Source: a virus (Duplodnaviria; Heunggongvirae; Uroviricota; Caudoviricetes). Taken from it: a DNA stretch of 24,564 bases. The DNA lies in IMG/VR virus record IMGVR_UViG_2740892233_000024, one strand, 5' to 3'. This document shows positions 12,001-18,000 of the stretch, in pieces (positions within the stretch are counted from its first letter, which is position 1; each line of letters starts with the position of its first letter). Made by a program: the position numbers.

Positions 12001-15000
12001 GTAACACCGCTCTTTAACAGTCATGGTCCTCATTCCCGCCGAAATGCGGGAATACAACGCGCATAAGTTGATGCGCATAACTTCTTATTTGTTAAGGAAA
12101 TACTTACATATGGAACTTACAAGTACTCGCAAGAAAGCGAATGCAATTACAAGCAACATCCTGAATCGAATTGCTGTACGTGGTCAGCGAAAGGTTGCTG
12201 ATGCATTAGGGATCAATGAATCGCAAATTTCGCGATGGAAAGACAGCTTTATCCCAAAGATGGCCATGCTTCTGGCTGTGCTGGAGTGGGGTGTTGAAGA
12301 CGAGGAATTAGCGGAGCTGGCAAAGAAAGTAGCCATGGTGCTGACAAAAGAAAAGCCTCAAGACTGCGGCAACAGTTTTGAGGCCTGATTGTAGAAAGAC
12401 TGTATCAATCCACAGGAGTAATTATGACAAAACGTCGTAAGAAATACCAGGAAAAAGAAGAGATTCGACACCCTGATTCACCTGAGGGATTAGTGGTAGC
12501 CGCAGCAAATAACAGGGCGTTCGCAGAGCGCCTTGTTGGTGTTTACAGACTAGCCAAAGCAGGAGTGAAACATGGGCGTCGTTAAGTTAGCTGATTACAG
12601 GCCTCAACTGGAGGTCGTGGAGCATCGCGTGGCAGATACCGAAGATGGTTTCATGCGCGTTGCTAACGAGATTATCGACAGTCTGCTGATGGCTGATTTA
12701 ACCGTCCGGCAGATGAAGGTGATGCTCGCTATCATGCGCAAGACATACGGATTCAATAAGCCGATGGATCGACTCACAAACACGCAGATAGCAGCCATGA
12801 CAGGTATTCATCACACTCATGTTTGCGCTGCCAAGCGCCAGCTTATTGAGCGTAAATTCCTCATTGCTGATGGCGTGAAAATCGGAGTGAACAAGGTGGT
12901 TTCTCAGTGGATTAGCCAGGACAGCTTAACATTAGCTAAAACAGCTAATAAAACATTAGCCGAGTCGGCTAATGGGTATAAGCCAAGTCAGCTAAACACA
13001 AAAGACAATATACAAAAGACAATAAATACAAATACCCCCTTACCCCCTAACGGGGGCGGCGATGGGCAGGTTAAACCTGAACGTCGCAAGGCAGAACGAA
13101 TCGACTACGAATCCTTCCTGAACGCCTACAACACCGAAGTCGGTGACAGACTTCCACACGCTGTTGCGGTCAACGAGAAACGAAAACGCCGCCTGAAGAA
13201 AATCATCCCGCAACTGAAAACGCCAAACGTGGACGGTTTCAGAGCGTATGTCAGGGCGTTTGTGCATCAGGCCAAGCCGTTTTACTTCGGAGACAACGAC
13301 ACGGGCTGGACGGCAGATTTTGATTACCTGCTGAGGGAAGACTCGTTAACGGGAGTTCGGGAAGGGAAGTTTGCAGACAGGGGGATTGCATGAGACAGGA
13401 TATCGAAGCGAGCGTTATCGGTGGCTTGCTGATTGGTGGATTAACACCAACCGCCAGCGACGTTCTGGCAACGCTGGAGCCGGAAGCGTTTTCAATTCCG
13501 CTCTACCGGAAAGCCTTCGAAGTTATCCGTAAGCAGGCGAGAAACAGAAACCTAATCGACGCGCTGATGGTTGCCGAGGCGTGCGGAGAGGAGCATTTCA
13601 CGTCAATCCTGATGACCAGCAAAAACTGCCCGAGTGCCGCAAACCTGAAGGGATATGCCGGAATGGTCGCGGATAACTATCACCGCCGTCTGGTGCTGGA
13701 AATCATGGACGAAATGCGTGAACCAATTCAGAGCGGAACCATCGATACATCGAGTCAGGCGATGGACGAGCTTGTAAAGCGTCTCTCAGCCATCAGAAAG
13801 CCCCGTGACGAGGTTAAACCTGTACGGTTAGGGGAAATCATCACTGACTACACTGACACGCTTGACAGGCGTCTGAGGAACGGAGAAGAGTCAGATACCC
13901 TGAAGACCGGAATCGAAGAACTTGACGCCATCACCGGAGGGATGAACGCGGAAGACCTGGTGATTATCGCCGCTCGTCCTGGTATGGGGAAAACCGAACT
14001 GGCGCTGAAGATTGCCGAAGGTGTTGCAAGCCGCGTTATTCCTGGTTCTGACGTCCGGCGCGGAGTGTTGATTTTCTCGATGGAAATGAGCGCATTGCAG
14101 ATTGCAGAGCGGAGCATTGCCAACGCCGGGAGGATGTCGGTTAGCGTACTGCGAAATCCTGCATCGATGGATGACGAAGGCTGGGCGCGTGTTGCTAACG
14201 GCATGAGTCAGCTTGCAGATTTGGATGTATGGGTAGTCGATGCCTCGCGGTTATCGGTAGAAGAAATTCGCTCAATCGCAGAGCGGAACAAACAGGAAAA
14301 TCCAAACCTGTCACTCATCATGGCGGATTATCTTGGCCTGATTGAGAAGCCGAAAGCAGACCGCAACGACCTCGCAATTGCTCACATCTCAGGAAGCCTG
14401 AAGGCGATGGCGAAAGACCTGAAAACGCCTGTTATCTCCCTAAGTCAGCTTTCGCGCGATGTTGAGAAGCGACCAAACAAACGCCCGACAAACGCAGATT
14501 TGCGTGATTCAGGAAGCATTGAGCAGGACGCAGACTCAATCATCATGCTCTATCGGGAAGCGGTATATGACGAGAACAGTAGCGCCGCACCATTTGCTGA
14601 AATCATTGTGACGAAAAACCGGTTTGGCCCACTTGGTACGGTTTACCAGCGGTTCTGTAACGGACACTTTGTTGCATGTGACCAGGATGAAGCCAGACAG
14701 ATTTGCACAGCATCAAATGCACCTGCTTCGCGTGGCAGACGATATGCACAAGGGGCTGACGTATGACCATCTACATCACTGAGCTAATAACAGGCCTGCT
14801 GGTAATCGCAGGCCTTTTTATTTGGGGGAGAGGGAATTGGAGGCTTTAAGAAATGAGTACGATAGCTGAGCTTGTCAGGGCTAATTTTCGTGAAGAGTTG
14901 GTGCGTTGGTATCGGTATCGTTCATCGTCCAGTTTGCCGATTGATGAGTTGTATGAGCATTCACCTGCTGCACGACGCTATCCGCGTGACCGTGTCCTTC

Positions 15001-18000
15001 GACGGTTGTTCAAACTCAACAATGAGTTTCAGCGCAACAGAATAATCCGGAGTCTGGATTTAAAGTGAAGGAGTGAGCATGAGTCGAAGAAGTAGCTTTT
15101 TGGGGTTTGTAATATTCCTGTCCTGCACTGGTTACATCGTAATCTGGTCAATTTCGAACATTGACCGTGGCGGGGAATATCTCATTGTAATGTTCTTTCC
15201 TTTGTTTCTTGGGTGGTACGCCGCAAGGTTGCTGGAAGAATGGGGTTACAGGCATAAAAAATAAAGGAGTGTTCAGTGAAGCAAACCCTTTTTTATTGGA
15301 TTAAGAGCGAGGGGTAAGTACCGATGGTAAATGCATTTATTTGTAGTTTATTTCTTGTCGCGATTTTTCATGGATTCCTTCTGATGATGAGTTTTGTTCT
15401 CTGGAATAATGGATATCGCATATTGGGAGTAGGTTTTGTTTTACGGTTTTCAGTTGTCTGCGCGTTGCTACCGATAATTATGGCGACTATCAAATATTAT
15501 TGGTAACCCAAAAAATCATCGATGGAGAGTGATATGGACGAATCAAGAAAGCAGTTTGAGGAATACGTTGCCAAAAAATTGAGATTACCATTCGAGATGA
15601 TAACCGAGGCAAGAAATGGTGATAGGTACTTCGCATTTTCAAGCATGGATATTCGTCACTCCTTAAATGAGTGGTGGACTTTATGGCAGGCATCGCGAGC
15701 AGCTATTGAACTGGATATCGACTGGCCAGAATCGAATGACGACTTTTGGAAAGATGGTGAAGAAGGTGCTTATGCGATGGGTTATGAGGATGGGCGTGAC
15801 AAAACGGTAATTGCAGTAATGAAAGCTATCAGAGCCGCTGGAATTAAAGAGAAGAATTTCGATGAAGCAAACAATATTCCTCCGAACTAAGCAACAACAG
15901 CAAGCCGCAATCAACGCCATCCTCGCAACACCACTCGATAAAGACAAGCCAGTCACCATCCGCATTACTGACTACAAGCGCAACCTTGACCAGAACGCAA
16001 AATTTCACGCGATGCTGGCGGATATCGCACGTCAGGTTCAATGGTGCGATAAGTGGTTAAAACCAGAACAATGGAAGGTTTTGTTGATTAGCGGTCATGC
16101 AGTGGCAACAAAGCAGGAAGCTGATGTTTTGCCCGGCCTTGAAGGCGAATACGTCAACATTCGCGAAAGTAGCGCGCAGATGAGTGTGAAGCGTATGGCA
16201 AGTCTGATTGAGTACACGACAGCATGGGCTATTGGTCAGGGCGTCAGATTTACCGACAGGAGGTACGAATGAGACGACAGCGACGAAGTATCACCGACAT
16301 AATCTGTGAAAACTGCAAATACCTTCCAACGAAACGCTCCAGAAATAAACGCAAGCCAATCCCAAAAGAATCTGACGTAAGAACCTTCAACTACACGGCT
16401 CACCTGTGGGATATCCGGTGGCTAAGACATCGTGCGAGGAAATGACAATGCTTTTAATTCAACCTGGATTTGGACTTAGCATCAAAAAAGGCCACATGTT
16501 TGGTGAGAAAGAGTCACAACGAAAAATGGTGTCTATCCGGTTGCCATTTATCAGTATTTATTGGCTAAACAGGGAGGCAACAAATTATTGGTATACATGC
16601 GCCAGAGCAGCATTTAACGACCCTGACTGGTTTGTGAAAAACCACCACGCAGTTCGTCAGGCAAAGAGAAAGGCCAATATGACATACATGAAGGCGTATC
16701 AAAAAGCATGGAAAGAACACCGCGATCGATACCAACAAGACATGGAAAAGCTTGAATCAGAAAACATGGAATTAAGACGAAAGCTCGGTGAAGCAAAACG
16801 AGACATTGATGCTTACAAGCGACTTTTTAATGGTGAAAGCCATGCTTAGCCCATCCCAATCCCTTCAATACCAGAAAGAAAGCGTCGAGCGAGCTTTAAC
16901 GTGCGCTAACTGCGGTCAGAAGCTGCATGTGCTGGAAGTTCACGTGTGTGAGCACTGCTGTGCAGAACTGATGAGCGATCCGAATAGCTCAATGTACGAG
17001 GAAGAATACGATGGCTAAACCAGCGAGAAGGAAATGCAAAATATGCAAGGAATGGTTTCACCCGGCATTCTCAAATCAGTGGTGGTGCTGCCCGGAACAC
17101 GGAACTCAATTAGCACTCGAACGACGAAGTAAAGAACGCGAAAAAGCGGAAAAAGCAGCAGAGAAGAAACGACGACGAGAGGAGCAGAAACAGAAAGATA
17201 AACTTAAGATTCGAAAACTCGCCTTAAAGCCCCGCAGTTACTGGATTAAACAAGCCCAACAAGCTGTAAACGCCTTCATCAGAGAAAGAGACCGCGACTT
17301 ACCATGTATCTCGTGCGGAACGCTCACGTNNNNNNNNNNTACTGCTGCGCAGAACTGATGAGCGATCCGAATAGCTCAATGTACGAGGAAGAAGACGATG
17401 AATGAGTTAATAAATGGCAATGCCATCAAAATGACAAGCATTGAAATAGCTGAGTTGGTGGGTAAGCGTCATGACAATGTGAAACGTACCATCGAAACGC
17501 TGGCTAAAAATGGTGTTATCCGGCTTCCTCAAATTGAGGTTTCCGAAAGAATCAATAACTTAGGGTTCAATGTTCAGTACGAGCATTACGTCTTCGAGGG
17601 CGAACAAGGTAAGCGAGACAGTATTGTCGTTGTTGCCCAGTTGTCGCCAGAGTTCACCGCTCGTCTTGTTGACCGTTGGCGAGAGCTTGAAGAAACTGCG
17701 GTTAATATCCCCAAAACGTTACCGGAAGCGTTGCGCCTTGCTGCTGATCTTGCTGAGCAGAAAATGCAACTGGAAAACCAGCTCGCAATTGCCGCACCTA
17801 AAGTTGAGTTTGCCGATCGCGTTGGCGAGGCCAGCGGAATTTTGATTGGAAACTTTGCAAAGGTTGTTGGTATTGGTCCAAACAAACTGTTTGCGTGGAT
17901 GCGCGATCACAAAATCCTTATTGCTTCAGGTTCCCGGCGCAATGTGCCAATGCAGGAATATATGGATCGCGGCTATTTCACAGTGAAAGAAACAGCGGTC

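Follow-up and report, generated by a model that had tools for sequence, protein, structure and literature searches.

Two small genes for predicted membrane hairpins among the independently assorting early-right cargo of a lambdoid prophage

The window analyzed here, the whole 24,564-nucleotide stretch of tailed-phage DNA (Caudoviricetes) recorded in IMG/VR as IMGVR_UViG_2740892233_000024, is a lambdoid prophage as judged by its gene content and order. Between the tR2 terminator and ninB it carries a cluster of small genes, and two of these, open reading frames (ORFs) A and B, are genuine protein-coding genes under purifying selection whose products have a two-transmembrane (TM) architecture. 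It is probable that the tR2-to-ninB interval is a cargo slot of the early-right (pR) operon, occupied here by four independent accessory genes (the DUF7301 gene, ORF A, ORF B, and a phiTE_015-like gene), two of which encode inner-membrane hairpins; this is the explanation that we favor for the locus as a whole. The DUF7301 gene was known already; ORF A and ORF B lack annotation and belong to none of the curated families. A nin region can be expected to hold small accessory genes, and nothing found here points to an unusual mechanism.

The 576-bp gap (15069-15644) left by RefSeq at this place thus holds two selected small membrane-protein genes that fall outside every curated family. The prophage type is heavily studied and occurs in enterohaemorrhagic Escherichia coli (EHEC) O26, in the adherent-invasive E. 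coli (AIEC) strain LF82 (phage Gally), and in avian pathogenic E. coli (APEC) strains. The annotation of approximately 200 complete E. coli genomes is thereby corrected. Two families are defined, that of ORF B, whose conserved loop motif is amenable to mutation, and that of ORF A, which is very narrow; this gives two short, easily cloned candidates for screening phage-encoded membrane modulators.

Coding status of ORF A and ORF B

A preliminary description of the window had noted a cluster of small ORFs at 14853-15506, in which an ORF of 71 amino acids (aa) is followed by two membrane-type proteins of 63 and 60 aa with AAGGAG and GAGGGG upstream. All three ORFs are found on the plus strand, at 14853-15068, 15073-15264 (63 aa from the GTG), and 15324-15506, both upstream sequences are present, and the length of 60 aa stands. 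The length of 63 aa does not: AAGGAG (15068-15073) overlaps the GTG at 15073, so the Shine-Dalgarno sequence serves the ATG at 15079 rather than this codon, and the protein comprises 61 residues. The shorter length is supported by independent gene calls (P0001 and P0002) and by a divergent homologue (P0004). The two genes are as follows:

15079-15264, plus strand: ORF A, a 61-aa two-TM protein (AAGGAG 5 nt upstream; frame-specific selection; hydropathy)
15324-15506, plus strand: ORF B, a 60-aa two-TM hairpin (GAGGGG, 15309-15314, 9 nt 5' of the ATG at 15324; distant homologues; selection; AlphaFold2 model)

ORF A was compared with P0004, its one divergent homologue (72% amino-acid and 77% nucleotide identity), which is encoded directly 3' of a DnaB gene on a short contig (locus L008). 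The proportion of synonymous differences (pS) is 0.58 and that of non-synonymous differences (pN) is 0.17, corresponding to a ratio of non-synonymous to synonymous rates (dN/dS) of 0.17 (Fisher p 4.5e-7), and the remaining two frames of the alignment show no pS/pN contrast. Codon alignment of ORF B with the gene of its homologue P0009 gives pS 0.76 and pN 0.42 (p 1.6e-4), likewise in the ORF frame only. At other fetched loci, 86 full-length copies of ORF A and 60 of ORF B contain 0 stop codons and 0 indels, and nearly all members of both families are preceded by a Shine-Dalgarno sequence. Polymorphism counts over approximately 100 near-identical loci did not distinguish coding sequence from non-coding, since the known genes there also show at least as many non-synonymous as synonymous changes.

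As RefSeq's empty interval implies, both ORFs might be chance frames in a T-rich, low-GC (guanine plus cytosine), non-coding spacer. The Prokaryotic Genome Annotation Pipeline (PGAP) annotates nothing at ORF A or ORF B in any inspected record. GC content over 15000-15600, which includes both ORFs, is 37-42%, compared with 50-55% in the replication genes, and the AT skew is negative; such a composition by itself favors hydrophobic codons. Moreover, dN/dS of ORF B among its close relatives (80-98% identity) is 0.64-0.85, based on only 10-16 differences and near-neutral if taken alone. The frame-specific purifying selection detected in both ORFs and the intact copies at other loci nevertheless show them to be more than chance. 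Distant homologues of ORF B, encoded in other phage settings, have the same length and share its motif, the upstream Shine-Dalgarno sequences are conserved, disrupted copies were not seen, and ORF A is called by other gene callers and in two phage records. The chance-frame explanation is largely refuted by these observations and is very improbable.

Distribution and families

Of the 5426 complete E. coli genomes searched, 195 contain ORF A and 78 contain ORF B; no feature is annotated under ORF A in any inspected RefSeq entry, and the records with ORF B leave it unannotated as well. Other gene callers do predict ORF A. Among 50,697 phage genomes searched with tblastn, ORF A is present in four, two of whose records call a hypothetical protein, and ORF B is restricted to Gally. 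Conservation in other prophages, proposed as a check in the preliminary description, is seen for both genes, homologues of ORF B being present in other lambdoid prophages too.

Neither ORF matches any family in Pfam, PHROGs, NCBIfam, or PADLOC; the scans returned only sub-threshold noise (Acyl_transf_3, E 0.01; VMA21, E 0.006 for one homologue). A literature search on the ORF peptide sequences and on small membrane proteins of the nin region gave nothing specific. Word-indexed protein searches retrieved only close relatives, in four clusters for ORF A and three for ORF B, and repeating the ORF A search with alignment added no further relatives. A scan of genome contigs with ORF A produced one match of 100% amino-acid identity, on a 10-kb contig (L022, JAEZIN010000021.1) of a metagenome-assembled genome labelled 'Bacillota bacterium', which is probably a binning or contamination artefact derived from an enterobacterial prophage. 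As sampled so far, the ORF A family comprises copies in E. coli prophages and one divergent sequence, and is very narrow.

For ORF B, an exhaustive profile search of 1.8 billion representatives reached further. It retrieved P0009 (61 aa, 40% identity, E 2.8e-9) as well as P0011, P0012, and P0014 (61-65 aa, approximately 30% identity, E approximately 1e-4, ranging to 1.4e-4). Three longer matches (229-269 aa, matched in several stretches) were set aside as they look compositional. In the alignment of seven sequences, which extends down to 30% identity, Ser23, Phe24, Trp27, Asn29, Leu34, Gly35, and Arg41 are invariant; the hydrophobic helices vary and the turn region is fixed, with the loop motif MSFVxWxNa[FY][RK]xLGxG[FY]xxR. 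The family is defined here by a length of 60-65 aa, two TM helices, and the pattern S-F-x-x-W-x-N-x4-L-G-x5-R, all of which ORF B displays. The P0009 gene occupies the same helicase-to-ninB slot, with a phiTE_015 gene nearby. The P0012 and P0014 genes are located in tightly packed accessory arrays of the early-left region, where the order is Dam, ORF B homologue, zf-DksA/TraR and the stop and start codons overlap. A reciprocal tblastn search of 2.3 Gb of phage DNA with P0009 and P0012 matched the ORF B copy of Gally and nothing else.

Predicted membrane architecture

Two hydrophobic segments per protein, as claimed in the preliminary description, are evident from hydropathy in ORF A (residues ~6-26 and ~34-49) and ORF B (residues ~1-27 and ~32-59); for both proteins, a membrane hairpin of two helices is predicted. 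For ORF B, an AlphaFold2 model built with the family alignment shows a hairpin (helix 2-29, turn, helix 32-59) at a predicted local distance difference test (pLDDT) score of 69. Foldseek comparison of this model with BFVD yielded only generic helical hairpins, all with E >1.

The charge map of ORF A comprises a basic N-terminus (MSRRSS), an acidic loop, and a basic C-terminal tail (RLLEEWGYRHKK), a pattern which by the positive-inside rule suggests an N-in/C-in topology. The loop of ORF B is probably cytoplasmic, as conserved basic residues are located in and just after the turn.

The tR2-ninB slot and its mosaic arrangement

The other elements of the cluster are:

14763-14849, plus strand: ninA-like ORF, 28 aa (phrog_5907, E 6e-18; the equivalent ORF is annotated as ninA in phage Nil2; nearly identical to lambda 40571-40640)
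14792-14825, plus strand: tR2 intrinsic terminator (8-bp GC-rich stem, 14792-14815, then the T run TTTTTATTT; terminator scan)
14853-15068, plus strand: DUF7301 gene, 71 aa (PF23975, phrog_1785)
15534-15890, plus strand: phiTE_015 or 'EaD-like' family gene, 118 aa (phrog_343, E 4e-32 over residues 1-119 of the 122-aa ORF at 15522-15890)

In the window, a cI-like repressor gene (minus strand) is followed by cro, cII, O, the gene of a DnaB-type helicase (13390-14766), tR2, the cluster, ninB (15862-16272), ninE and later nin genes, Rha/ANT, RusA, and Q (20517-21290). A prophage of E. coli O26:H11 11368 matches the window at 99.9% identity over 8222-17329, and the remainder diverges; this prophage was therefore rejected as the source of the window, which is a different mosaic. 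Any one complete E. coli genome covers at most 54% of the window. The terminator that the preliminary description had noticed behind the helicase gene is present and proves to be a lambda-type tR2, matching that of lambda nearly base for base; the same element is annotated as tR2 in Nil2.

The cluster had also been assigned to the slot of ren and ninA in lambda. It does occupy a variable slot next to that place, although not the place itself, since it follows ninA/tR2 and precedes ninB. The position in the operon is the same as in lambda, the tR2/ninA sequence is nearly identical, and ninB comes next; in lambda, however, ren precedes tR2 and the terminator leads directly into ninB with no gene between, as seen by comparison with the lambda genome, so the cluster of the window is read as an insertion of approximately 1 kb of cargo at this point. 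Ren is not matched by any of its ORFs. Relatives carry other cargo at this slot, such as Lar-like restriction alleviation genes, HNH endonucleases, and ren, and the low GC content across ORF A and ORF B accords with an origin as acquired cargo.

ORF A and ORF B are unrelated in a profile comparison. Both are present in one stretch in 58 genomes, and at many loci ORF A occurs without ORF B or ORF B without ORF A, so co-occurrence is not obligate. Since they are unrelated and found separately, the two ORFs do not constitute a two-gene module. Among the arrangements seen, four illustrate the point: tR2 - X - phiTE_015 - A - ninB; variant tR2 - B - phiTE_015 - ninB; variant tR2 - B - phiTE_015 - A - ninB in phage Gally; and tR2 - DUF7301 - A - B - phiTE_015 - ninB in the window. 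ORF A and ORF B thus assort independently, by recombination at short gene-boundary linkers. Two sequence elements record these events:

15062-15083, plus strand: gene-boundary linker AAAGTGAAGGAGTGAGCATGAG, ~22 nt (upstream stop, Shine-Dalgarno sequence, and start of the next gene)
15276-15317, plus strand: recombination scar and 13-codon mini-ORF, MKQTLFYWIKSEG followed by a stop codon (compare L004, which has ninB after ORF A, and L002 and L006, which have ORF B after variant tR2)

The linker consensus, AAAGTGAAGGAGTGAG(C/T)ATGAG, is found at the 3' end of DUF7301 and phiTE_015 genes alike, and in different phages the gene that begins with it is ORF A, a Lar-like gene, or a 54-aa gene. The copy at 15062-15083 is a likely site of homologous module exchange. 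The scar has a different structure. The start of ninB (its Shine-Dalgarno sequence and initial 11 nt; GTGAAGCAAAC, 15276-15286) is duplicated 3' of ORF A, and at the joint (15286/7) it is fused to the 3' half of the variant tR2/ninA element (GGGGCTATTTACACAGTAGCCCTTTTTTATTGG in Gally and L006) which precedes ORF B there. The join deletes the stem of the variant terminator and yields the 13-codon mini-ORF, ending 6 nt 5' of ORF B. As the identical A/B joint is seen behind differing upstream genes, it was probably formed once and then spread.

Together, linker and scar joints account for the arrangement of the window. The locus is a clear case of lambdoid cargo shuffling, combining a ~22-nt stop/Shine-Dalgarno/start linker with one illegitimate join that left a scar of the ninB start.

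Expression

Scanning of 14500-16300 revealed no plus-strand promoter and a single terminator, tR2 (none within 14830-15900); the cluster is accordingly read as part of the pR operon 3' of tR2. By analogy with lambda, its genes are most likely delayed-early lytic accessory genes that need antitermination. ORF A and ORF B would be transcribed only upon pR readthrough of tR2 in lytic growth and translated from their own Shine-Dalgarno sequences, and translational coupling of ORF B to the 13-codon scar ORF is possible.

The transcriptome of LF82 lysogenic for phage Gally revealed no gene with autonomous expression (PMC9928086). Gally carries identical ORF A and ORF B, and the result fits, though indirectly, the proposed lytic-only expression of both. 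With respect to the features of a moron, the ORFs differ from their neighbors in base composition, and the scan found no flanking promoter and terminator of their own that would allow expression in the lysogen.

Proposed role and alternatives

In the proposed mechanism, each product would insert in the inner membrane as a two-helix hairpin, the two representing unrelated, uncatalogued small families. ORF A and ORF B would act singly, each binding a host or phage inner-membrane component via the conserved part of its hairpin: the loop SFxxWxN....LG.....R in ORF B, and TM2 with the amphipathic basic tail in ORF A. They may serve as dispensable infection modulators rather than as a toxin-antitoxin pair or as morons expressed in the lysogen.

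Several points weigh against this explanation of the locus. Hydropathy, the positive-inside rule, and an AlphaFold2 model of medium confidence are the basis for the predicted membrane insertion and topology, and the dN/dS values of ORF B among close relatives have been mentioned above. The promoter scan was a simple sigma-70 consensus search, which weak or activator-dependent promoters can escape. The binding of membrane partners by the hairpins is hypothetical. Finally, the counts in the Gally transcriptome cover only annotated genes, among which ORF A and ORF B do not figure (PMC9928086).

Exclusion factors had been suggested in the preliminary description. A more specific role, as superinfection-exclusion proteins blocking incoming DNA or as counter-defence proteins neutralizing a membrane-acting abortive-infection effector, would suit the architecture of approximately 60 aa with two TM helices. 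The other cargo of the slot in relatives (Lar-like genes, HNH endonucleases, ren) also concerns host interactions, and low GC content and patchy distribution are typical of accessory cargo. However, neither ORF matches a PADLOC, Pfam, or PHROG family, and exclusion of the type exerted by lysogens is weakened by the missing promoter for lysogen expression and by the failure to detect a moron in the Gally lysogen (PMC9928086). Such a role is possible for ORF A and ORF B in the lytic phase, if unlikely.

Known parallels are architectural or positional. The Imm protein of phage T4, which blocks DNA entry of incoming phages, and other small inner-membrane exclusion proteins are, like ORF A and ORF B, small, with two predicted TM helices, and are made early in lytic growth, as the two ORF products would be; they share no sequence or family similarity with the two ORFs, so the analogy is limited to architecture. 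Lambda Ren, whose gene neighbors the slot, acts against Rex. Tentatively, and with a low expectation, ORF A, ORF B, or both might be membrane effectors of the lytic phase that have no described counterpart in lambdoid phages, acting either by an Imm-like entry block or, as a counterpart of Ren at the membrane level, by disarming a membrane-acting abortive-infection effector, with the invariant loop of ORF B as the contact surface.

The suggestion of a toxin-like module in the preliminary description finds little in its favor. On this reading, ORF A and ORF B would be all or part of a type I toxin-antitoxin system, or would encode a membrane-depolarizing toxin with a partner. Type I toxins (Hok/Gef, Ldr, TisB, Ibs) are likewise short hydrophobic membrane peptides on mobile elements, and one weak minus-strand promoter-like site (15506 to 15477, 9/12 matches) is located within the 3' end of ORF B. 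Nevertheless, shuffled sequences give 3.2 such sites against the one observed, the scan found no minus-strand terminator, and an Rfam scan of 14500-16000 gave nothing near threshold, leaving the toxin reading without antisense signals. No toxin family of Pfam or NCBIfam (Hok, Ldr, TisB, and Ibs included) matches at E up to 1, nor does any holin or defence family. Type I toxins usually have one TM helix, whereas both ORFs have two; they are unrelated to each other, occur without each other, and are co-directional within the pR operon. A toxin module is therefore highly unlikely. Similarly improbable in our judgment is the role of a holin- or antiholin-like regulator of lysis timing for ORF A. 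Class II holins have two TM helices, an N-in/C-in topology, and a charged C-terminal tail; the combination of two TM helices with such a tail is seen in ORF A only, and its size, basic N-terminus, and charged tail (LEEWGYRHKK) resemble those of pinholins, for example S21 of phage 21. In contrast to these, ORF A lies in the early operon rather than in the late lysis cassette, at a distance of approximately 5 kb upstream of Q, so that early expression is expected, and it matches no Pfam holin family. A dual-start holin motif formed by GTG 15073 and ATG 15079 was rejected, since the GTG belongs to the Shine-Dalgarno sequence.

Remaining genes of the cluster and the window

The 71-aa ORF is a full-length member of the DUF7301 family, as it matches PF23975 with 90.2 bits (cutoff 27), residues 1-64 aligning to profile positions 1-64 of 65, and phrog_1785 with E 2.6e-33; PGAP/RefSeq already labels it a DUF7301 family protein. 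No difference from the family was noted. Members are common in Shiga toxin (Stx) phages (e.g., hypothetical proteins of Stx2-1717 and SH2026Stx1), where they occupy the same place just 3' of tR2. The protein is basic (net charge +7) and predicted to be all-helical by AlphaFold2 from the single sequence (pLDDT 72). Sequence searches identified no relative in PDB, Foldseek against PDB gave no match with E <5, and the family is not mentioned in the literature library searched.

The phiTE_015-like gene is located directly 3' of ORF B in most copies fetched, and neighbors in related loci carry PF26207. PGAP starts this gene at 15645 (15645-15890, 81 aa), while the start at 15534 (118 aa) is supported by full-length family homology, the phrog_343 match, and a GGAG Shine-Dalgarno sequence. 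Its C-terminal half is mosaic between relatives, and no PDB relative of the protein was found by sequence search.

The 28-aa ninA-like ORF overlaps the tR2 hairpin and encodes a hydrophobic peptide (grand average of hydropathy, GRAVY, 1.05). In the variant tR2 of Gally and L006, both the hairpin and the tail of the ninA peptide are altered.

Elsewhere in the window, the gene in the cro position (11755-12000) matches both P22_Cro and the Pfam family 'YdaS_toxin' (E 1.5e-17); the family name implies a toxin, yet the protein occupies the place of Cro. Between rusA and Q, the minus strand carries at 19166-20125 a gene for an LpxR-family outer-membrane lipid A deacylase (PF09982, E 7e-40), which is likely to be a lysogenic-conversion moron.

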